Shown: positions 1,730 to 64,000 of the stretch, in pieces
Numbering within the stretch: position 1 is the first letter of the stretch
Layout of the letters: every line of letters begins with the position of its first letter
NCBI GenBank assembly: GCA_951406725.2
Contig: OX597814.1
Span: 155,000,001 to 155,064,000, forward strand
DNA length: 64,000 nt
Direction: 5' to 3'
DNA from: Octopus vulgaris
Lineage: Eukaryota
Notes under the pieces: model-generated
Told to the model about the DNA's origin: nothing
The model's input: the letters and a program-made list of their open reading frames with translations, nothing else
Database searches by the model: none
Position numbers and translations under genes: made by a program

Positions 1730-2110
1730 AAAGAATGTATGGTAAATAAACAAACGGCACAACGTATACTGAGTCTACAACCGGACGGGAGACAAACGCA
1801 GAATGTCCCTAATTCTTCATCAGTTTTCAACTAATTTAGTAATACTCAGCTTCGCACTATTAATGATAAGACTGAGAACTTCCTATATTGGCGGTGCCCG
1901 CAAAACTTTTTTGCGGAGAATTTAGGGCCTAGAGGAAAGAAAACAATATAGAATGGACATACAAAAGTGAATAAGTGAGATTTAGGACGATGGACAAAAA
2001 CGAAATATATAAAATAAAGTATGAACAAAATAGCCTTAGGACCAAAAAGCCAATAATAGTTGGTAACACTTAGAAGACATCCTAAAGGATAATGAACAGT
2101 GAGACAGAGA
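1730..2110 (-). mobile_element. Non-autonomous repeat, family C, carrying a rearranged hammerhead; homolog at about 42640-42910
   Basis: Shares ATTGGCGGTGC, TTTAGGACG(A/G)TGGAC, AGCCTTAGGG and GGTAAC(A/G)CTT blocks with 42640-42910; ends next to a (TA)n/(CA)n tract. Confidence 0.6.
1817..1897 (-). ncRNA. Rearranged (non-circularly permuted) hammerhead motif, family C, partly decayed
   Basis: Minus strand: GCAC-c-GCCAAT...CTCAGTC^TTATCA-ttaata-GTGC-GAAG-CTGAG...ATTAGT-TGAAAA-CTGATGA. GUC triplet; A15.1 is G; mismatches in stem I and helix X. Confidence 0.65.
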
Positions 2111-10719: not shown

Positions 10720-10910
10720 AATCTAATGCTCGTAGCTTAGTTTTTCCTTGAGGCTGGCCGGATCGGAGCGATCTCGAGATTAATCAGCCGAAATTGCTAG
10801 GATGATCCGGTTCTTGACTGAAGATTGAAGGCTTCGAATGTCCCGTCCGTGTTTTTTGTATCGTCTTCTAAATGTTTTACGTTCTTGTCCCAGTTTGTAT
10901 TTTTCTACAT
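10720..10910 (+). mobile_element. Family A non-autonomous repeat between (TA)n tracts
   Basis: Homologous to 11830-12070, 12620-12812, 46172-46300, 53485-53717 and 62300-62510. Confidence 0.8.
10752..10824 (+). ncRNA. Rearranged hammerhead ribozyme, family A, intact core
   Basis: GGCTG-g-CCGGATC-gg-AGCGATC^TCGAGA-ttaat-CAGCC-GAAA-TTGCT-aggat-GATCCGG-t-TCTTGA-CTGAAGA; all four helices pair. Confidence 0.8.
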
Positions 10911-11410
10911 ATTTATATATATATATATATATGTACACACACATATGATTTTTTCCCTCTCTCGTATTCCTTAATCCCTTTCCCCTCTCCCATATCTCTT
11001 AGTCCTTCTGCCTTCTTCAACTCCTCCCCTCCTCTTCCACGTGATCACTGTCCAGTTTAGGCATTTTCGTATTTTTTCGGCTGACCACCTTTCAAGTTAG
11101 TCGCATCTGTTCTGTTCTGTCTCGTCACCCGGTCAGTTAAGATTTTTCCATTTCTTTTTTCCTTGCTATAGCCTACTACACTGTCTGATAGTCGAAAAAC
11201 TCTGTTTTGTTTTATTTTTATTGCAATTGTATAATTATTTTCCTTTTGTTGTATAGCCGAAAAGCTTTTGTCCATTGTATATAATTATAATTCTATTTCT
11301 TATGTTACGTTCGTCCGATAGTCGAAAGACCCTTTCAGTTTGTTATTTCCTTGTGTTAGTATATGTACATTTGTTTGCCTTGCTTAGGGTTTTAATGTCT
11401 TCAGGCCTTA

Positions 11411-11483
11411 GCTCAACTGGTTTCGAGTAGTATCGGAGAGGATTGGGCGAAACTACGTGGACATTCCAGACTCCGATTAAAGG
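11411..11483 (+). ncRNA. Rearranged hammerhead motif, family D, CUGANGA decayed
   Basis: GCTCA-a-CTGG..GTAGTA^TCGGAG-aggat-TGGGC-GAAA-CTAC..CCAG-a-CTCCGA-TTAAAGG; all helices pair. Confidence 0.65.
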
Positions 11484-11957
11484 GGTAATTGGCAGCGAAT
11501 GATCCGTATATCTTGTTTTGTCCCGTTTGCCATTGTACACACACACAGTATCTCACATAAGTTTGCCGAGCTATCGTCATTTTCCTGCTTGTTATGTTTT
11601 GACGATTCGGTTTACGTTGTTTCTTTTACCCCTAAAACATACATACATACATACATACATACATACATACATACATGCATACATATATACATACATACAT
11701 ACATGCATGCATATATACATGCATACATATATATATGTTGTGGATTTATAGAAAGAAAGCCCATAAAGCTCAAAAAATATATTCATATATACGTATGTAT
11801 GTATGTTGTCCCATTTTGTATGTTATATATATATATATATACAAGAATGGGACAAGAACGCAAAACACCCGGACAGCTAGGTGATACAAAAAGGGACAAC
11901 AAAACATCCAGGTAGATGATACAAAGAAAACAAGGACGGGTCATTCGAAGTTTTATT

Positions 11958-12030
11958 TCCTCAGTCAAGCACCAGATTATCATCGCAATTTCGGCTGATT
12001 ATTCTTGAGAGTGCTCCAATCTGGCCAGCC
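11958..12030 (-). ncRNA. Rearranged hammerhead, family A (CTGAGGA; 16.2 mismatch)
   Basis: Minus: GGCTG-g-CCAGATT-gga-GCACTC^TCAAG..CAGCC-GAAA-TTGC..AATCTGG..CTTGA-CTGAGGA. Confidence 0.7.
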
Positions 12031-12593
12031 CAAAGGAAAAATTAATCTAAGAGCATTAGATTCCTTGGAAAAAAGCAAATGTATACAAAAATAGTGACTG
12101 AGAAAGCAGACAATGTTACACAAATATGAATACAAAAAATAATAATAAAAATAATAACAGGGCATAACAACAAGTGTCTTTCGACTAAGGACGAATTGAA
12201 TTGAACTGGTGCGTGTGGAAATGAAGCCTTACGGCAGAGATACAAAATTTTCACAAACACAGGGAAGAATATCGATGTTGCACGGACAATGGTCAGAACA
12301 AGAAAGAAAGAGCAGGCTTGACCGAACACCACGTGGGAAGAGAAGAGAGAGAAGTAGAAGCAGAGGGACAGAAGAATTAAGGAGGGGCGAAAAAAAATGA
12401 CAGGGACACAGTGAAGTGAAAAGTGGAGGGAAAGTAAGAAGCGAAGGCAAAGAAATGTGAGAGAGGGGAAACGGAAGAACGAAAAGTGGAATGAACGAAT
12501 AAGCGTGAAAGGGCGTGATAGACAGAAATAGAGTCGTACAAGATTTTGAAAAATGTGTACTTACATATTAGAGACCAAAGTGTACGTACGCAG

Positions 12594-12629
<36 letters not shown>

Positions 12630-12744
12630 CAAAATGGGATAAGAACGCAAAACTTCCGGACAGCTAGGTGATACAAAAATATACAACAAAACATTCAGAT
12701 AGACGATACAAAGAAAACAAGGACGGGTCATTCGAAGTTTTCTT

Positions 12745-12812
12745 TCGTCAGTCAAGCACCAGGTTATCCTCGCAATTTCGGCTGATTATTCTTGAGATTG
12801 CTCCAATTTGGC
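12745..12812 (-). ncRNA. Rearranged hammerhead, family A, 5'-truncated (CTGACGA)
   Basis: GCAATC^TCAAG..CAGCC-GAAA-TTGC..CTTGA-CTGACGA; the GGCTG strand is replaced by another repeat at about 12813. Confidence 0.6.
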
Positions 12813-13099
12813 AACGCCACGCATCCATTTCCAACTGAGTTTATCTTAACCTTTTTGATGCAACTCTACTCTATACTGTTTTCTCTCTCATCCTTTTATA
12901 ATTCCCCTTCTTCCCTTCACTGTTTTCTATCTCTCTCTTTCTCCTTTCTCTTTTACTCTTTCTCCTTGCTCACACGTAACCATTATCCATCTTTTTTTTC
13001 CTCAAGTGACCATCTTTCTTTTCCTGCACGACGTTCTAAAAAATGGACGTCTTCTATCTCTCTCTTCAAACGTTATTGTTTTGAAAGAGTATTTCTCCC

Positions 13100-13238
13100 A
13101 GCGCTCACTATTTTCCTCTCATATGGCAAAGGTAAATCTTTTTGTCCGCTCTGTAACGAAGAACAATTTCTCATCCTTATCTCGGAGAATATTCTTGTAA
13201 ACACGTTTAAAGAATGCGTTTATCGTTGTAAACGTTGA
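13100..13238 (+). pseudogene. C-terminal remnant of a Penelope-like ORF (cysteine motif after GIY-YIG)
   Basis: YGKGKSFCPLCNEEQFLILISENILVNTFKECVYRCKR resembles the CxLCxxE..I..LN.xxE...C motif that ends many PLE ORFs. Confidence 0.5.
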
Positions 13239-13884: not shown

Positions 13885-14615
13885 AATCATATATGGGTAC
13901 AGGACGTCATAGAACGTAAACAGCATGAAATAGGAAAACAACAGGGAAACACGAAATACGAAAACAAGGAATACAAACAGTTTTTTTGCGAACAACGAAA
14001 GAATGAAATGATAAACAAGGCAAGCTACATAACGAACGACCCTTCATCATTTGTCGACTGTTTTTCTACTCCGTATTTTGAGCAATTCCTGATAAGATAC
14101 GTCTTCGACAAAACAGTTGTTCCTGCAAAGCAAATTAAATAAAATTTGGGATTTTGCGTAGGGTCACAGTTGGTGACAATAATAGGACAGTGAAACAAAT
14201 AGAAAGGGCTGCTAAGCCTTAAGGAGGTGGCGAACGCTGGGGGAACAAGCTTTGACAGGAGAGAGACAAGAATGCGTCTGATCTCTGCCGCTGATTAGCA
14301 GGAAAGAAAGAAACTCAAGTTAAGAAAAGTAAGATGGCTGATGGTCACGTGCGAGCAACGAGAAAGCAAAGGAGGAAGAGTGAGGGAGAGAGAGGGATAG
14401 ACAGAGAACGGCGAAGGGGAGACGAAAAAAATTAGAGAAAGGATGAGAAAAACAAAAGAGGGAGAAAGAGAGATAAAAACAATTAGAGAAAGCAAGAGAG
14501 AGGAAACGAAAGGGGTAAGAGAAAGAGACATAGGAATAGAGATGGTAATAGAATAAGAGTCGTATCGAAATTATTAAGATAAAACTTACTTGGAAATGGA
14601 TGCGTGGCGTTCAAT
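13885..14615 (-). mobile_element. Family B non-autonomous repeat (homolog 43295-44003)
   Basis: Shared ATATGGGTACAGGACGTCA, GACCCTTCATCA, GATGGTCACGT..GAGCAACGAGA and TTACTTGGAAAT.GATGC.TGGCGTTCAATCA. Confidence 0.8.
14044..14122 (-). ncRNA. Rearranged hammerhead motif, family B, inactivated core
   Basis: GAACA-a-CTGTTTT..CGTATC^TTATC..TGCTC-AAAA-TACG..AAAACAG..GACAA-ATGATGA (C3>A, G12>A). Confidence 0.6.
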
Positions 14616-16824: not shown

Positions 16825-17180
16825 CGTTGCTATTATATCAAACTGTCGTATGTCCAAATTTGGCCAAATGCGTTTTTTTTTATTTTCAGTATTTATTTTT
16901 GTTTGCACTAGCTGGTTATTTTGGTCAAACTATCGTATCTCCAGTTGCTTCAGATGCCAAGGTGTCAAAAGTTGTACAACAGTTTTGCTATGGAATGGTG
17001 GAACTGTTTTCGTTTTCTGAAAAAGCAACGGTTTGGACTTACGACACTTTTGTATAATAAAAACGATATATATATAATATATATCGTTTTTATTATACAA
17101 AAGTGTCGTTCTGAAAAAGCAACGGTTCGGACTTGTGACACTTTTGTATGAGAAAAATTATATATACATATCAGTAATTC

Positions 17181-17252
17181 AGGTTCTACCGAGACTTAAA
17201 CTCGGATCTCTGGATTCAGAGTCCAGAGTGCTAACCATTACACCATAGAACC
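17181..17252 (-). pseudogene. tRNA-Gln(CTG) copy with T-loop mutation (TTT for TTC)
   Basis: GGTTCTATGGTGTAATGGTTAGCACTCTGGACTCTGAATCCAGAGATCCGAGTTTAAGTCTCGGTAGAACCT; B-box C56 lost. Confidence 0.8.
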
Positions 17253-17353
17253 TGCTACCGAATAACTGCCACATATTACATTTACGGATAAATTCCTCTA
17301 TTTACATAATATCGCGGTCTCTATTATTCTTTTGTTATCTTACCCTTTTATCA

Positions 17354-17971: not shown

Positions 17972-18020
17972 AGTGGATTTGGTAGACGGAAACTGAAATA
18001 AGCCTGTCGTATATATGTAT

Positions 18021-18190
18021 TCGAAACGTTTAGTAGATGAAACCTTAACGACTGAAGAAGGGGATTTTTCGTTGTGCTTATTGTCCTGTATCTCTTTTTT
18101 TGCTTGTCTTGTTCCTTGGTTTGTGTCTATGTTTTTCGTCTCTCTATGTGTTCGACGTCTTTTTGGTGTCCTGTACACATATATGCGTGT
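18021..18190 (+). mobile_element. 3' fragment of a family-B-like repeat with the GAAA...CTGAAGA half of the rearranged hammerhead
   Basis: TC-GAAA-CG...CTGAAGA-AGGG, then a tail ending GTCCTGTACACATATATGC like the family B tails. Confidence 0.5.
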
Positions 18191-18622: not shown

Positions 18623-18693
18623 AGGTTCTACCGAGACTTGAACTCGGATCTCTGGATTCAGAGTCCAGAGTGCTAACCATTACACCATTAACC
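18623..18693 (-). pseudogene. tRNA-Gln(CTG) copy with damaged acceptor stem
   Basis: 5' end GGTTAATGG instead of GGTTCTATGG (71 nt); the rest is intact. Confidence 0.8.
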
Positions 18694-19060: not shown

Positions 19061-19372
19061 TTGTGTGTCTGTGTTTGTCTCCCTAGCATTGCTTGACAAC
19101 CGATGCTGGTGTGTTTACGTCCCCATCACTTAGCGGTTCTGCAAAAGAGACCGATAGAATAAGTACTGGGCTTACAAAGAATAAGTCCCGGGGTCGATTT
19201 GCTCGACTAAAGGCGGCGGTGCTCTAGCATGGCCGCAGTCAAATGACTGAAACAAGTAAAAGAGTAAAGAGTATATCGTTTTTATTATACAAAAGTGTCG
19301 TTCTGAAAAAGCAACGGTTCGGACTTGTGACACTTTTGTATAATAAAAATTATATATACATATCTGTAAATC

Positions 19373-19444
19373 AGGTTCTACCGAGACTTGAACTCGGATC
19401 GCTGGATTCAGAGTCCAGAGTGCTAACCATTACACCATAGAACC
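19373..19444 (-). tRNA. tRNA-Gln (anticodon CTG), intact
   Basis: GGTTCTA/TAGAACC acceptor stem, CTGGA-CT-CTG-AA-TCCAG anticodon arm, CCGAG-TTCAAGT-CTCGG T arm; TTTTT terminator about 23 nt downstream; matches metazoan tRNA-Gln. Confidence 0.93.
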
Positions 19445-19559
19445 TGCTACTGAATAACTGTCACATATTACATTTACAGATAAATTCCTCTATTTACATA
19501 ATATCGCGGTCTCTTTCATTCTTTTGTTATCTTACCATTTTTATCAATGTATATATATA

Positions 19560-20842: not shown

Positions 20843-20999
20843 AAGAGCTAGTATAAAGATCAACTGTATCTGCAATTTTAAACCTATCTCTAAACATAAA
20901 CCTGAACTTGAAAATAAAAGTATACATAAGCTAATAACTAATACTTACCTTTAAACCCCTCTCTATCACTAATCTTATGCTAATCCTGAATCAAAATGC

Positions 21000-21079
<80 letters not shown>

Positions 21080-21081
<2 letters not shown>

Positions 21082-21973
21082 GGACAACTTCCAGAGATCC
21101 CTGGCCTGGCGGTGCTACCGAGAAGCGCTACCCGTTCGGGATAAGCTCTATAGGCATGGCTCGAGAAACACGCGGCCGACCTGCCCGAGATGCGGGCAGA
21201 GCGACGAAACCGCTCTGCACGCAATCGTGCAGTGTCCAGCAATTTCCCACCTGTGGGCTTATGTCGAACGACTGCTGTCACGTGTGGAACGTGTCGGTTT
21301 ATCAGCCGAGTCTATCGTTAATATCGTCACGCCTCCTTCCTTCAAACGGGAAGGAAGAGCTATTTTTATCATACTTGTGGCTATGGCGAAAGAATGTATC
21401 TGGTGGACGCGTCTGAAAGGATTAGAGACAAACACTTTCCTCTCTGGTCAATCTCTCATCAACTTCTTCAAGTATCACTTGAAGAAAAAAGTGAGAGTAG
21501 AGAGGCAAGTTTTGTCTAGTGAATGTTTTAAAAAAAGATGGGTGAATATAGCAAGGATGGCACGTATGAATGACGAAGCAACCTTGACTATGATTCTATG
21601 AACCGTAAAAATTAAGACAGAGAGTTGCTTATTTGCAAAAAAAAAAAGAAAAAAAAGAAATATAACATGTGACTTCATTGACCGAGGTTACCGTGGTCTT
21701 TTCCGTAGGCTTTTCTTTCCACGGGTAAACCTCACCTGTCCTCCCCTTTACACTTCATATTGACATTTCTGTGATAACGATCCCTATTGATCAATTTTTT
21801 TCCTCTCCCCCTTTTTTTTTAACCCCCCCTTTTTTTGTCCTCTTTCTCTCCTTTTACGATCCCTTTTGATCGACTCCCCCCCCTTTTTTTTTTTTTTTTT
21901 ACCTTCAAAAGAAAAGCTCTACCTTGTAATTTGTTCTATCTGTGTGCAGCCCTGTGTGGCTAATAAAGAAACA
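21080..21973 (+). mobile_element. 5'-truncated L1/Tx1-like LINE: ORF2 C-terminus (zf-RVT) + 3' UTR, inserted in (TATC)n
   Basis: Open frame to TGA at 21601 with LAWR..ALP..CPRC...ETALH...C...W (CCHC zf-RVT); AATAAA at 21962 directly before (TATC)n. Confidence 0.85.
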
Positions 21974-40109: not shown

Positions 40110-41985
40110 CATTCATGGCTGTTGAAGTGCCTACATCTGGCGAAAGTACCTACTACCTTAATTGGTGGTATAGAGAGACTCACAAAGACATGGACAACAA
40201 TTTTTAGCCTTACTACTGAGAACAGAATAATTGTTTTTGATAGTATAGTCATTTCAAAGGGAATATTGCAGGGGGATATTCTTTATGTACTTCTTTTCAT
40301 TTTGACACTGAATTCATTATCGTTCCTACTGCAAATTGTTACATGCTAGGATCTTCAACTGCTAGAAATATCAATGTAACTCATAATTTCTTTGTAGACG
40401 TCCTGAAGATTTATGCTAAAAGTGTTAACAATGCCAAAAAACAACTGGAATTAATAACAACATTTTCAGCTGATATAAGCATGGAGTTTGGCCAAAAGAA
40501 ATGTTCATATTTGGTTATAGAACGAGGAAAGTCAGTCCCCCAAACCCAAAGCCTGTGCGTCAACGGTCTCTCTGTCTCTCGTATTCCACACAAAGAATGT
40601 TACAAGTACCTAGACATAGATAAAAATATTTCACATGAAGGTATTTTGAATAAAGCTAGAGTGTCCCGAGAATATTACACCAGATTTAGGAAAATATGGC
40701 AGTCGTAACTCTCCTCTTACAACAAAACAATATCCCACAATGCATTTGCAATACTAATGCTGATCCCAACATTTGGGATACTTAATTAGTCTGTAGAGGA
40801 AATTCACTCCAAAGATATCAAAACCCTCAAAATCCTGACAACGACTGGGAACTTCCTCAGAAACAGTGATGTTGACAGGCTCTACCAAAGAAAAAATGAA
40901 GGTGGTAGAGGCCTGGGATCAGCGCAGGCGGCCTTCGAATGCCGTATTGTATCACTCAAGCAGCACCTGCTAAACAACAGCAACAAAAATAAATATATTA
41001 ATGCAGTGCTGCAAAGTGAAGTGAGCAACTTTTTACGAGTTGGCAATGAGCTCCTCAAGAAACGCTCTCTTCCTGATGATCTCCTATACAGCCTCAAAAC
41101 AGGTGGGCTATTTTATCTCAGAGAAGACCTAGATGGAAAGCACTCAGCATACAAAAAAAAAAGACTATGCAAGGGAATAGTCCGGAAAAGTATTGCCCGG
41201 AAGCTTGAAGAAAACAGTAGAATTGACACGAAGCGCAGCCGCTCTTGGACACAAGACCACATCGCATCACACTTTTGCAATCCAGGAATAGAAGATTGCT
41301 ATAAAGTACCTATAAAGTAAAGTGAACAGTAGAGACAGTGACGCTCTTGTAATCCCAAGGTACAACCGCATGTGCAGGCTATGTCATGTTTCTGTGGAAG
41401 ACATCACGCATGTGATTAGCAGCTGTCCTAAAATGTCGTCACGGTACTACCTCCCGATATGAAACGACGCTGCTGCTAAAACAATTCACAATGCCATCCG
41501 CAAAAAAGACTGTCCTGAAATAAGCTTAGAAAATCCCTGTAATGGAATACATTCATAAACATCAATTCAAGAAATACTGGTGGAATATTTTCATCAAAAC
41601 TTGTATTAAATGTAAACATAATATGCCAGATATTGATCTTCGGGATAGAGGGGCAAAGGTGTGTATCATCACAGAGGTCAGCTGCCCAGCAAATATAAAA
41701 ATCTGCTTCGATATCCAAACTATGAATTCATATTCATACCAATAATAATTGGAGCACCAGGTTTTGTTAGTAAATGCTTTAAGGAAAATCAGGATAAACT
41801 GGAATTTTCAGAAAGAAAAATCGATCGGCTAATTCTTACATTACAAGTGCAATCTGTGAGTGGAACAATACAAATATACAAATCTTCTCTCAAGTTACAT
41901 ATGTGAATTTGTCTATGTTAACTACATCCCGAAGATGTGCACAGGGCTAAGTAAATTGGTTTGGCATCTTAAAGACAACAATAAA
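40110..41985 (+). mobile_element. Decayed 5'-truncated R4/Dong-like non-LTR retrotransposon (RT + CCHC + restriction-like endonuclease)
   Basis: KGILQGD (RT5), HNFFVDVLKIYA (YADD region), DISMEFGQKKC, YKYL, GGRGL, CRLCHVSVEDITHVISSCP, and HNMPDIDLRD..IITEVSCP (PD-(D/E)xK); many frameshifts and stops. Confidence 0.85.
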
Positions 41986-43226: not shown

Positions 43227-43414
43227 TATATACATGCATATATATATATATATATATATATACATACATATATATATATGTGTGTAAATATATATATGCA
43301 TATATGGGTACAGGACGTCACAAAACGTAACATGAAATACGAAAACAAAGTTGTGTACGCAAACAACGGGAGAAACAAATAGAAAACAAGACAAGTAACA
43401 TAAAGAATGACCCT

Positions 43415-43491
43415 TCATCAGTTGTCAGCTGCCCATGTACTCTTCGTTTCAAGCATTGAACGACAATATGAAACTTCGAAGACAGTTGCTC
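43415..43491 (-). ncRNA. Rearranged hammerhead motif, family B, core boxes intact
   Basis: GAGCA-a-CTGTC..TTCATA^TTGTC..TGCTT-GAAA-CGAA..GGCAG-ct-GACAA-CTGATGA; one CpG-type mismatch at 16.2. Confidence 0.7.
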
Positions 43492-43852
43492 CCGTGAATC
43501 AAAATTAAATTTGGGATTTGCGGAGGATTTGCGGAGACATACAAGGAAACCGAACGAAAACAATCATGGAAGGTCGTTAGACCAGACGAGGTAATGTAGC
43601 GAACGCTGGAGAAATATTGTCTTTGACAAGAGAAAAGATAGAAGAGGTGATAAATAAGATACGTGCAGTCACTACAACACTGAAGAAACGAAAGAGGGAC
43701 GATGGTCACGTTGAGCAACGAGAGAGAGATAGAGTAAAAGAAAAAGAGCAAGAGAGAGAGACAGTAAAGGAGAAAGAGAGACAGACAGAGAGATAGAAAA
43801 CGGCGAAGGGGAGAAAATAATAATTAGAGAAAGGATGAGAGAAAAAACGATT

Positions 43853-46023: not shown

Positions 46024-46173
46024 CATACATACATACATACATACATACATACATACATTCAGTCATTCATTCATTCATTCATTCATACACACGTACATAC
46101 GTATATACATATATGCACAATTTTTCTGTATATACACATATAATTGCATATATACAGGCATATAATAAATCCA

Positions 46174-46214
46174 TCAGCCGAAATTGCGAGGATGATCCGG
46201 TTCTTGACTAAAGA
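46174..46214 (+). ncRNA. 3' half of a family A rearranged hammerhead (G5 mutated)
   Basis: CAGCC-GAAA-TTGC..GATCCGG-t-TCTTGA-CTAAAGA. Confidence 0.5.
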
Positions 46215-46297
46215 TTGAAGGCTTCGAATGTCCCATCCGTGTTTTTTGTGTCATCATCAAAATGTTTTGCGTTCTTGTCCCTGTTTGTATTTTTATA

Positions 46298-52665: not shown

Positions 52666-53609
52666 TACATCTACCTAAACATCTAGCTAAACATCTAGTG
52701 GAATCACACCCTATCAGTGAGACTGAGTAGTTGGAACATCTTGCAAATCCCTCTCACGATTATATGTGTAGTTCAGAGAAAATAACTTGTTACACACAAA
52801 TTCACTTTGATTCTATCAGAGGATTATATTAAATTGTACAATCATCTGAGGAATGCACGGTCACCTATGCAGTAATACATCGAGTTATCAGTTCTGGAAT
52901 ATTTACTGTCAAAAGAGACGCAAAATACTTATACTTTTATGAGTTGGTTATGCAGATTAGAACGAACGCACACAAGTGTTTTACAAGTGTCTATATATTC
53001 ATATATGCTTATTGAATCGTGCATAAATGAATTATGAGGACTTGATGAACACATGCACGTGAATATGGTATCGGATGTATTATAAGCGCCTGAAAATTCG
53101 TGCCGTTCACACGTAAACACGCAAAAGAAAAAAAGAAAAAGAAAAAATGTATGTGTAGCAGGGCATATAATCAGAACATAAAACGATATTTAGTTGAAGC
53201 TGCACAATTACTGATGGGAAAAATAACGTACACGTCTCTTGCTATTAAAATAGAAAAGGGCTGTGTGGTTACAAAGCTCGTTTTGCAGTCACAGAGATTC
53301 GGGTTCAGCCCACTAGCTACTTTAGCCATATATGTAAATTCGGTGGACGGAAACTGGGAAGCCCGTCCTATACATACATACATATGTGTGTTTGTGTGTG
53401 CGTGTATATATATATGTGAGTGTGTGTGTATATATATATATATATGTGAGTGTGTGTGTGAGTGTATATATATATATATATATATAATACAAAATGGGAC
53501 AAGAACGCAACACATCCGGACAACTAATGATACAAAAAGGGACAACAAAACATCCAGATAGACGATACAAAACAAACAAAAAAAAAAACGGGTCATTCGA
53601 TGCTTTCTA

Positions 53610-53682
53610 TCTTCAGTCAAGAACCGGATCATCCTCGCAATTTCGGGTGACTAATCTTGAGATTGCTCCAATCTGGCCAGCC
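53610..53682 (-). ncRNA. Rearranged hammerhead, family A (CTGAAGA; single mismatches in stem II and helix X)
   Basis: GGCTG-g-CCAGATT-gga-GCAATC^TCAAGA..CACCC-GAAA-TTGC..GATCCGG-t-TCTTGA-CTGAAGA. Confidence 0.7.
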
Positions 53683-53818
53683 CCAAGGAAAAACTAAGCT
53701 AAGAGCATTAGATTCCTTATACATACACTAGTAATTATACATACACTAGTAATTATTCAAATATATACCGTTGAACATAGAAAGTAGGATATATGTATAT
53801 ATGTATATATACATATAT

Positions 53819-60569: not shown

Positions 60570-61721
<1,152 letters not shown>

Positions 61722-62234
61722 TATTGAACCCAGAACAAATCTTTCTGAATAAATCTATGATGAAATGCTGGGATGTCTTATAATTTGGTTCGCCATATTA
61801 TTGTTGACGTCATCACTCTATTTGAAAGAACCTATTTGTTGATGCACACTCTATTTGGAGAGAAAACATTCGGAGTTAAAACTGAGGTAAAGATCTGCTA
61901 CATTACTGAAATTGATAGCTGATGCACGTGGGTTTGATTACTGTCTGGCATCACATGCGATAGATTTTTCCGAGAGAGGGGTGAGCATTAATATACAGAA
62001 AAGCTAGGGATAATATATCCAGACAGGCACCGTTCAAGCACTCTAATATAACTCAAGTTATGGTTGACCGCATTGAAAATCATTAACAGGAATGAAATCT
62101 GGATGCAGATGAACAAACATGGTACAAATGAAAACCACTTCGTGAGATATCCATGCAGCAGAAACATATGTCGGAGAGAGCTTTAATTTAAATATGGTGT
62201 ACAAATTACTTTGATAATAATTTATTTGAATTGT

Positions 62235-62302
<68 letters not shown>

Positions 62303-63491
62303 TAAACGTTAAAAAAACACAAACTGGGACAAGAACGTGAAACATTTTGAAGACGGCAAAAAAACACACAGACGGGACTTTCGAAGCTCTCAGTCATCAG
62401 TCAAGAACCAGATCATCTTCGCAATTTCGGCTGATTAATCTTGAGATTGCTCCAATCTGGGCAGCCAACCAAGGGAAATCTAAGCCAATCGCATTAGATT
62501 CCTTGGAAGAAAACCTCGAAAGTATACAACACGGTGACGGAAAAACGGACGATGTTACTCGAAAAAAAAAAAATTCAAAAATACGTAAAAACAATAAAGA
62601 AAGCACGGATAAAAATACAAAATAACTTAAAAACAATCATAACAAAACCAGGACGTCAGGACAAGCGTCTTTCGACAGGACGAGTTGAGTATAGGGCTGG
62701 CTGTGCACACGGATTTTTTGAAATTCCCCACAATCTGTGCCCTGGCACATTCCCAAGAAAGTGAACGCTTCTTGTCTGCAAGAAATTTGGTTAAAACAAT
62801 GTTCTTGCTGAAGCTATCTGCCTGTGTTTTCCATCGGTCTCCCGTCTCTTATATCTGTGATTGGAAAAAACTGCGCGTTCGAATATAACAAATGATGTGT
62901 ATTGTTTGAAGAATGAGAACTGTAATGTTCAGTTTTAATTCTTCATCTCTTTTATTGTTACGAATTTATATTTACAAGGGACACTACCATTTTAGGGAAA
63001 GAAAGACAAGTTACATTGACAAGTACTGTTTATGAAGGAAAAAAATTTACGTTCATTGAGAAGGTAGAAAAATGTTTGTGGAAGTAGGAAATGTTTTAGT
63101 TTTAGGGTAACATTTCTTTTTACAATCTAACAAGTTGACAGAGACGGGACGATGATTACTGCCATGATCGAAAATTTGGCGGTTGTCATGCCTCGTTGCT
63201 CATATCCACAGATTCGATCTCTTTTATTGAGTTCAGAACTAATCTTCCTGGATAAATCTATGGTGAAATTATGGCATGTCTCATAATTTTATTGGCCATG
63301 TTATTGTAAATGTCATCATTCATTTTGAAAGATCCTGTTGGTTAAAGCATACTTTATTTGAAAAGAAAACATTCGGAGTTAAAACTGAGGCAGAGATCTG
63401 CTACATTGCTGAAATTGATAGCTGATGCGGGTAGGTTCGATTACTGTCTGGTATCATTTGCGATAGATGTTTGCCAAGAGAGGGGTGAGCA
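61722..63491 (-). repeat. Two diverged direct copies (61722-61987 and about 63222-63491) of a probable decayed PLE RT segment
   Basis: Shared GAAAACATTCGGAGTTAAAACTGAGG..GATCTGCTACATT. Minus translation gives ..ADLYL..FK.xDD(I/V)..IYP..L, which resembles the PLE RT YIDD region. Confidence 0.45.
62394..62466 (-). ncRNA. Rearranged hammerhead ribozyme, family A, fully intact
   Basis: GGCTG-c-CCAGATT-gga-GCAATC^TCAAGA-ttaat-CAGCC-GAAA-TTGC-gaagat-GATCTGG-t-TCTTGA-CTGATGA. Confidence 0.82.
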
Positions 63492-64000
63492 AGAATGTTA
63501 TATATCCATAAAACTCGTAAAGCAGATTACACAATCAAAAATATATGCTTCTCATCCATTCTACTCATCACTGACTACACCCATGGCGCTTTTATCGGCA
63601 ACAATACAAATTTTTGATCAAGAACAACAAAAACATCAAGGTAAAGGTTTTCCACTGTTTTCTGTCACGAAATAGTTGGCCAAAATATGGTTGGAAAACC
63701 ACATTTGCTGGTAATCAAATAGCAAGCACTAGTGTGATCTGTCAAAGGACTGATTCTAGTATTGTTAAGATATCGTGTCTATTTAACCCAGGTTTATCAA
63801 ACGGATTTCCTGCCCTCGTGTCTAACAGTATGCGCCTTAAGAACTATTTTCGCTAGCAAGTCCGGCGCGAGTATAAACAACAACTACTCTGAATGCATCA
63901 CCGTCAAGTCCACCAACCTGCTATCCAGTCGAAGAAGGGCGTTCATACCACAAACCCGAAATAATTTCCCAAGTAATATTCCCATTCTGCTTTATTCAGT

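Follow-up and report, generated by a model that had tools for sequence, protein, structure and literature searches.

In the classic hammerhead ribozymes of types I, II and III, the three core blocks C (stem I strand, CUGAnGA, stem II strand), G (stem II strand, GAAA, stem III strand) and S (stem III strand, position 17, stem I strand) occur in the circular orders CGS, GSC or SCG. Hammerheads with a non-circular order, the types SGC and CSG, were described by Eckert, Friedrich, Weinberg and Weinberg in 2023 (PMC10085705). These types cleave in vitro and require all four stems, block C is assumed to be unbreakable, and a steric problem is flagged for some SGC ribozymes. Non-circular hammerheads are so far known from environmental sequences with unknown host, and type CSG was previously published from only two sequences. 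Here we analysed 64,000 nucleotides (nt) of Octopus vulgaris DNA (GCA_951406725.2, contig OX597814.1, positions 155,000,001 to 155,064,000; called the window, position 1 being its first letter), in which a repeat copy near 62 kb contains a rearranged hammerhead. We read the motif at 62523-62377 on the minus strand as a six-helix non-circular hammerhead at the 3' end of a likely Naiad-type tail, with a predicted cut after C62445 that is likely to occur in trans (probability of this reading roughly 0.6).

Among Penelope-like elements, the canonical Penelope clades carry canonical type I hammerheads. Naiads were reported without canonical hammerheads, eight of their entries being marked as half core (Craig, Yushenova, Rodriguez and Arkhipova 2021, PMC8557442), and their traits include a preference for (TA)n targets, 5' truncation, partial tandems with inverted 5' pieces, and an ORF (open reading frame) in which an N-terminal GIY-YIG nuclease and CxC and DKA motifs are combined with a C-terminal reverse transcriptase. 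Penelope-type hammerheads commonly carry an extra base between positions 9 and 10.1, have been proposed to act as dimers and show low activity in vitro (PMC4209133); single extra bases at this junction are known from two studies (PMC4209133, PMC3705267). In the literature searched, with subscription papers lying outside the search, we found no account of non-circular hammerheads in Penelope-like elements nor of a form split between A9 and G10.1. Passages of a 2026 retrozyme preprint, a 2026 ribozyme paper and Forgia 2023 add no such description.

Architecture of the split hammerhead at 62 kb

The motif is composed of the following parts:

62377..62523, minus strand: whole six-helix split hammerhead motif (147 nt; minimum free energy -48.9 kcal/mol)
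62509..62523, minus strand: helix V, 5' strand (15 base pairs (bp) with 62391-62377; pair probability 0.97)
62469..62506, minus strand: hairpin VI, directly 5' of G10.1 (pair probability 0.93)
62462..62466, minus strand: stem II, 5' strand (5 bp with 62433-62429; G62466 is G10.1)
62455..62460, minus strand: helix IV, 5' strand (6 bp with 62413-62408), the helix joining stems I and II in types SGC and CSG (PMC10085705)
62439..62450, minus strand: block S (stem III strand 62450-62446, C17 at 62445, stem I strand 62444-62439)
62445/62444, minus strand: predicted cut in block S, placed by analogy
62421..62433, minus strand: block G (stem II 3' strand 62433-62429 with C11.1 at 62429, GAAA 62428-62425, stem III strand to 62421)
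62408..62413, minus strand: helix IV, 3' strand (pairs with 62460-62455)
62394..62406, minus strand: broken block C (stem I strand 62406-62401 followed by CUGAUGA 62400-62394; a stem II strand is missing downstream)
62377..62391, minus strand: helix V, 3' strand, beginning 2 nt after A9

The core words CUGAUGA (62400-62394), GAAA (62428-62425) and AUC (62447-62445) and the cut position lie where the original prediction, made from the letters alone, had placed them. The four core helices consist of 22/22 Watson-Crick pairs, including stem III (62450-62446/62425-62421, 5 bp) and stem I (62444-62439/62406-62401, 6 bp). The limits 62394..62466 given in that prediction are too narrow, as the fold runs from 62523 to 62377 in the order V5'-VI-II5'-IV5'-block S-block G-IV3'-I5'-CUGAUGA-V3'. 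Stem III and helix IV are linked by 4 and 7 nt. Hairpin VI is separated from G10.1 by 2 nt in this copy and by 0 nt in the other aligned copies of the same repeat family (family A, six copies in the window). The features of the hammerhead class are present: the words CUGAnGA, GAAA and UH, and stems I, II and III abutting the core with A15.1-U16.1 and G10.1-C11.1, stem II by means of its upstream strand.

The blocks follow each other as S, G, C, a non-circular order that matches none of the orders of the classic types. This order and a helix IV that connects stems I and II at their far ends are features of type SGC. However, the stem II strand lies 72 nt upstream of A9 instead of following CUGAUGA, and the motif is therefore not an intact type SGC. 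In all four family A copies tested, the 5 nt after A9 form at most 2/5 pairs with stem II; the upstream strand forms 4-5/5. With block C broken in this way, intact type SGC was rejected. In copies of two further families (B and D, see below) the nucleotides after A9 reach 4/5 stem II pairs, G-U included, only when 1-2 nt are skipped, and these letters form helix V. The GAAA at 62382-62379 could suggest a minimal type I hammerhead further downstream, which was likewise rejected: the other five copies differ there, a stem I partner is missing and the letters belong to helix V. In its wiring, 62523-62377 corresponds to a type-CSG hammerhead that has received two additional helices at A9/G10.1 and is open at this point. 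The backbone link from A9 to G10.1, which every described hammerhead possesses, is missing; its two ends are held together by helices V and VI.

The window is AT-rich (32-40% GC) and contains many microsatellites. A strict descriptor matched three loci in it, whereas 150 dinucleotide-shuffled windows averaged 0.007 matches, none of them equally strong. In a scored scan the 62-kb locus obtained 19/19 points, and 0/411 shuffles reached 16. The folding stability of the 147-nt unit corresponds to a z of -3.2 (equally stable shuffles, 2/300). Helices V and VI surfaced on folding the core with its flanks, and 15 contiguous pairs like those of helix V occurred at 86/20000 random places. Helix V contains a compensatory pair, which is U62521-A62379 here; the other five window copies have U at the second place, and contigs of four public runs, aligned at 80% likeness to the 62-kb region, have A at the first place in 58-99% of depth. 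We have little doubt that 62523-62377 is a selected structure. Rfam gave no hammerhead among the 150 listed of its 157 matches to the window at E<=1.

Host element and related copies

The 62-kb motif lies in one of the following family A copies:

62301..62702, minus strand: 5'-truncated repeat copy of roughly 400 nt; its 3' end abuts (TA)n; no open reading frame (ORF)
53573..53718, minus strand: mismatches in II and IV; truncated before the 5' strand of V
46173..46288, plus strand: lacks block S; core mutated
12689..12811, minus strand: truncated in stem II/IV; head to head with an inverted piece of family B
11923..12199, minus strand: decayed; in tandem with the preceding copy, 787 nt apart
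10720..10898, plus strand: four core helices intact, with two G-U pairs; ends inside VI

All six copies share a 3' end 87-123 nt past the core, at (TA)n, and their 5' ends differ; insertion bias for (TA)n, a fixed 3' end and 5' truncation are thus found in 6/6 copies. The copy at 62 kb is the only one with all 22 Watson-Crick pairs and a full helix V, in agreement with its former description as the best preserved. Over the core of five aligned copies, N7 takes all four bases and the other six core letters and GAAA are invariant; paired cells amount to 90.9% as compared to 23-49% in slid controls.

In the contigs the repeat spans 62300-62702; beyond it, depth falls from about 3 million at the core to that of single contigs (69 and 52) over 62703-63200. 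The summed depth of about 3 million against 52-69 indicates a large family and is not a copy number. Family A contigs occur in two runs guessed to be RNA, the contigs carrying no information on strand, level or ends. One contig (run X12) jumps back 372 nt, from 62690 to 62319, which might reflect a head-to-tail tandem or a circular unit. At 12811-12820 family A (minus strand) meets family B (plus strand) head to head, like the inverted 5' pieces of Penelope-like insertions. Candidates for partial tandems and inverted pieces comprise one tandem pair, one head-to-head junction and one contig joint. A 274-nt direct repeat (84%) at 61715-61987 and 63218-63491, 1.5 kb apart in otherwise single-copy-looking DNA, flanks the insertion. 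The exact pattern of family A was found at 0 loci in viral contigs; in metagenome contigs it gave four loci, all without block S and judged to be chance, and no relative of family A.

The common 3' end at (TA)n, the differing 5' ends and the presence of the same wiring at Naiad 3' ends (see below) support the former proposal of a rearranged hammerhead in a Penelope-like 3' repeat. It is highly likely that the host of family A is a Penelope-like element and, by analogy of shared architecture, target and truncation pattern, there is a good chance that it is a Naiad. The 62-kb copy has no ORF and is not autonomous.

The GIY-YIG relic proposed at about 62830-62900 fared differently. The peptide is there as written, stop included:

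62834..62899, minus strand: proposed nuclease peptide; in the single-copy flank; does not belong to the repeat or the element

Its reading as a nuclease relic of a Penelope-like element is not supported. The peptide lies outside the repeat, because the latter ends at 62702 and the family copies in the contigs depart from the window sequence at this point. Of the residues in the quoted motif, neither cysteine is present, nor is the second tyrosine, and a stop replaces the glycine. With stops read through, the six frames of 62500-64000 gave no match to the Pfam profiles for GIY-YIG and reverse transcriptase (RT), and 12 frames next to four of the other copies gave none either. A GIY-YIG domain is thus not present directly upstream of the 3' repeat of the 62-kb copy, and the N-terminal nuclease of a Naiad would not adjoin the 3' repeat anyway. 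A peptide at 13110-13238 (plus strand) with a spacing of C-x2-C, E, N, E, C, recalling the end of a Hydra-type/Penelope-type nuclease, was dropped, as Pfam, protein and Atlas searches gave no match.

We inspected the supplement of PMC8557442 for four CUGAnGA words (60/62, 30/43, 23/23 and 25/25 places); within the Naiad FASTA there were 62 CUGAnGA places, words broken by a line end being missed (one such was noticed). The motifs of the 54 Naiad consensus entries were read by eye. The split form, with six helices and G10.1-C11.1, occurs at the 3' ends of 10/54 entries (Naiad_Bfor, 3_Chem, Amil, Aacu, Anas, 2_Movir, Plae, EuTe, Obim and Ovul). These represent seven independent sequence types from five phyla, namely ctenophores, cnidarians, an acanthocephalan, a crustacean and octopuses, and their helix sequences differ from those of the 62-kb motif. 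In EuTe, III (10 bp) and IV (5 bp) are linked by 1 and 0 nt, and in Amil (Acropora) a 12-bp III meets IV with 0 nt on one strand. Intact type CSG was read in seven further entries, six from nematodes and one from a spider (a Pristionchus entry, Nbra-1, -2 and -3, Hcon, Hpol and the entry before Lpol, which is Smim by table order and has a single additional U following A9). Provided that the Pristionchus entry is Parc, 5/8 of the half core marks would be resolved. Core words wired in still other ways (order S, G, C, CUGAnGA being immediately followed by a helix) were seen in a chelicerate entry and in the Darwinula block (parts 16 and 17-19 of the supplement).

A looser scan of the window showed the same spacing at 43491 and 14122 (family B), 11411 (family C) and 1897 (family D), in these motifs:

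43410..43528, minus strand: family B split motif with other helix sequences and intact core words (score 16, 0/411 shuffles)
14036..14167, minus strand: family B split motif, core decayed
11380..11488, plus strand: family C split motif, core word decayed at three positions
1811..1922, minus strand: family D split motif, V and VI clean

With free spacing, shuffles gave up to two matches per window at scores 12-16, and the scan was undiscriminating below 14 (0.6 per shuffle at 13); the geometry was therefore fixed. Eight loci then scored at least 12 and 0/355 shuffles reached 10, with ranges chosen after seeing the hits. The cores of the four window families are 44-59% identical, and stems I-III are kept with different letters and 0-2 mismatches per stem. 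Covariation in the stems is present across the window families and, by eye, also across the Naiad consensus sequences. Helices V and VI, which were not used in finding the loci, scored 9, 9.5, 9.5 and 12 in the best copies of families A, B, C and D (null frequencies about 0.06, 0.04, 0.04 and 0.003), and 8, 7.5, 7.5 and none in the remaining copies, two of which are truncated there. A weaker, decayed and truncated relative of family B was seen at 17990-18060 (plus strand).

Further features of the window are two tRNA-Gln(CTG) genes (17180-17253 and 19372-19445) and a third, weaker tRNA match (18623-18693, minus strand), a zf-RVT match (20990-21601, plus strand, E 6e-9) and a weak RT relic of the non-long-terminal-repeat type (40244-41320, plus strand).

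Proposed mode of cleavage and alternative explanations

By analogy with known hammerheads we expect with good confidence that the RNA of 62523-62377 cleaves, the predicted site lying after C62445. An AUC triplet is favourable in purified RNA and less so during transcription (PMC1636495). As to the mode of cleavage, we slightly favour trans over cis. The RNA may first fold into a nested set of helices V, VI, IV and III (-37.5 kcal/mol in the 62-kb copy; the core of the 10.7-kb family A copy folds III and IV at a pair probability of 1.0). The 20-nt apical loop of this fold (C17, I3', II3' and GAA) would serve as a plug and its multiloop (II5', I5' and CUGAnGA) as a socket, and their docking would form stems I and II together with the usual core. 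The chemistry would come from this intact core, with G12 as base and the 2'-OH of G8 as acid; in the hammerhead core the chain turns sharply just before A9 (PMC11300833). The plug could reach the socket of a second copy, e.g. in a tandem read-through transcript, and cleavage in trans would then trim multi-copy RNA. This encounter should be easier than docking within one molecule because III and IV form nearly one continuous helix in several Naiads.

Within one molecule, helix IV would have to turn back along stems II and III. A helix extends by 2.8 Å per pair, and an unpaired step spans up to about 6.5 Å. On these dimensions the turn-back would be borderline for the 4- and 7-nt links of the 62-kb copy and out of reach for the EuTe and Acropora Naiads unless stem III opens. 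Docking between two copies escapes the link limit and would fit the tandem layout as well as the dimer action of other Penelope-type hammerheads. The steric problem flagged for some SGC ribozymes (PMC10085705) is of the same kind.

Several points weigh against the reading of the 62-kb motif given here or against parts of it. In the 147-nt context ViennaRNA, which does not consider pseudoknots, assigns a pair probability of only 0.02 to III and IV and of 0.66 to II; stem II is thus favoured over III and IV, which counts against the plug-and-socket intermediate for the 62-kb copy. Folded by itself, the 91-nt core region is less stable than its shuffles (z +1.07). The argument for trans cleavage draws on general helix dimensions rather than on a model. 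Covariation of the core helices within family A is not beyond that of shuffles (264/500 reach it; five copies), as expected for decaying copies. A change at 62410, which produces an A-C mismatch in IV, makes up 43-72% of depth, and the rows listed show no matching change in its partner. None of the copies scanned in the window contains an ORF tying family A to any clade, and nine short motifs of the window families gave 0 exact matches in the published Naiad consensus file. Among the 54 Naiad entries, 37 gave no fit (including Esco, 2_Skow, the Darwinula block, one entry of part 16 and all bivalves seen), and stem I has only 2 bp in Naiad Bfor. A broken block C contradicts the assumption stated in PMC10085705. 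Finally, cleavage by one Penelope-type hammerhead required protein, and this hammerhead was not needed for insertion in vitro (PMC11167929).

The same six-helix ribozyme might act as a monomer, with IV folding back beside II and III by means of the 4-nt and 7-nt links and cutting in cis. We regard this as rather unlikely, although the links of the 62-kb copy leave some slack, a long stem III could open at its distal pairs and single SGC and CSG constructs cleaved during transcription (PMC10085705). As far as they are described there, the assays do not separate monomer from dimer, and links of 0-1 nt together with a stem III of 10-12 bp in the EuTe and Acropora Naiads speak against a monomer.

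Alternatively, it might be that the fold is selected but not self-cleaving, being either a ribozyme that depends on protein or a signal bound by the RT of the element, in which the hammerhead words were kept. The broken A9-G10.1 link would agree with this, as would the anole Poseidon hammerhead, which needs protein and at whose site no RNA-seq reads end (PMC11167929), and the low in vitro activity of Penelope-type hammerheads (PMC4209133). However, C3-A9, G12-A14, the A-U pair 15.1-16.1, G10.1-C11.1 and, at position 17, a base other than G are conserved in five phyla, and N7 and the helices change while the core stays, making this explanation improbable in our view.

Placing the motif in the 3' repeat of a canonical Penelope element with a C-terminal nuclease, its GIY-YIG relic at 62830-62900, is hardly tenable: the peptide is the sole six-frame match to a loose pattern, but one shaped on the peptide itself, and a very old relic could fall below the 80% likeness of the contig comparison, but the repeat ends before a single-copy flank where the family copies continue otherwise, motif residues and Pfam matches are absent, and canonical clades carry canonical type I hammerheads (PMC8557442).

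Implications and comparison with known systems

The six-helix trans-acting hammerhead favoured here leads to a wider proposal, which we make tentatively and rate at somewhat below even odds: Naiads in at least six animal phyla may carry non-circular hammerheads, including the six-helix form split at A9/G10.1 that would cut only when two copies meet as plug and socket. If true, non-circular hammerheads would for the first time be abundant in an animal host, a topology held to be impossible would be added, and the half-core marks of Naiads as well as the steric puzzle of type SGC would be explained. The stated gap of why Naiads seem to have no ribozyme would thereby be addressed. A split form in five phyla with six co-varying helices would overturn the assumption that the CUGAnGA strand and stem II are inseparable and offer many natural examples for structural biology. 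With six family A copies and four copies of families B, C and D within 64 kb, genomes of this kind may hold a very large class of ribozyme motifs that has gone uncounted and is invisible to Rfam.

With Naiads (PMC8557442), family A shares the preference for (TA)n, truncation at the 5' end and the RNA architecture at the 3' end, which is identical in 10/54 entries by eye; tandem and inverted pieces may be a further common feature. It differs in that its sequence lies outside the published set and that it is known without an ORF; the paper gives the partial cores no structure. Type SGC/CSG (Eckert, Friedrich, Weinberg and Weinberg 2023, PMC10085705) has in common with the 62-kb motif the cyclic C, S, G order, a short link between stems I and II, the fourth helix and the full core. 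In the octopus motif, in contrast, block C is broken, helices V and VI bridge the gap, and III and IV are linked on both strands. The Penelope-type hammerheads (PMC4209133) resemble the motif in that they lie in terminal repeats, carry G10.1-C11.1, tolerate insertions between 9 and 10.1 and have been proposed to act as dimers in tandems. They show the classic order and a tiny palindromic stem III through which dimers swap, whereas the form described here has a non-circular order, a stem III of at least 5 bp and an insert of two helices. The PK hammerhead (PDB 8YDC; Zhan et al. 2024, PMC11300833) is similar in forming helix II as a pseudoknot around an unchanged core, but its A9 continues into G10.1, its order is classic and it lacks helices V and VI.
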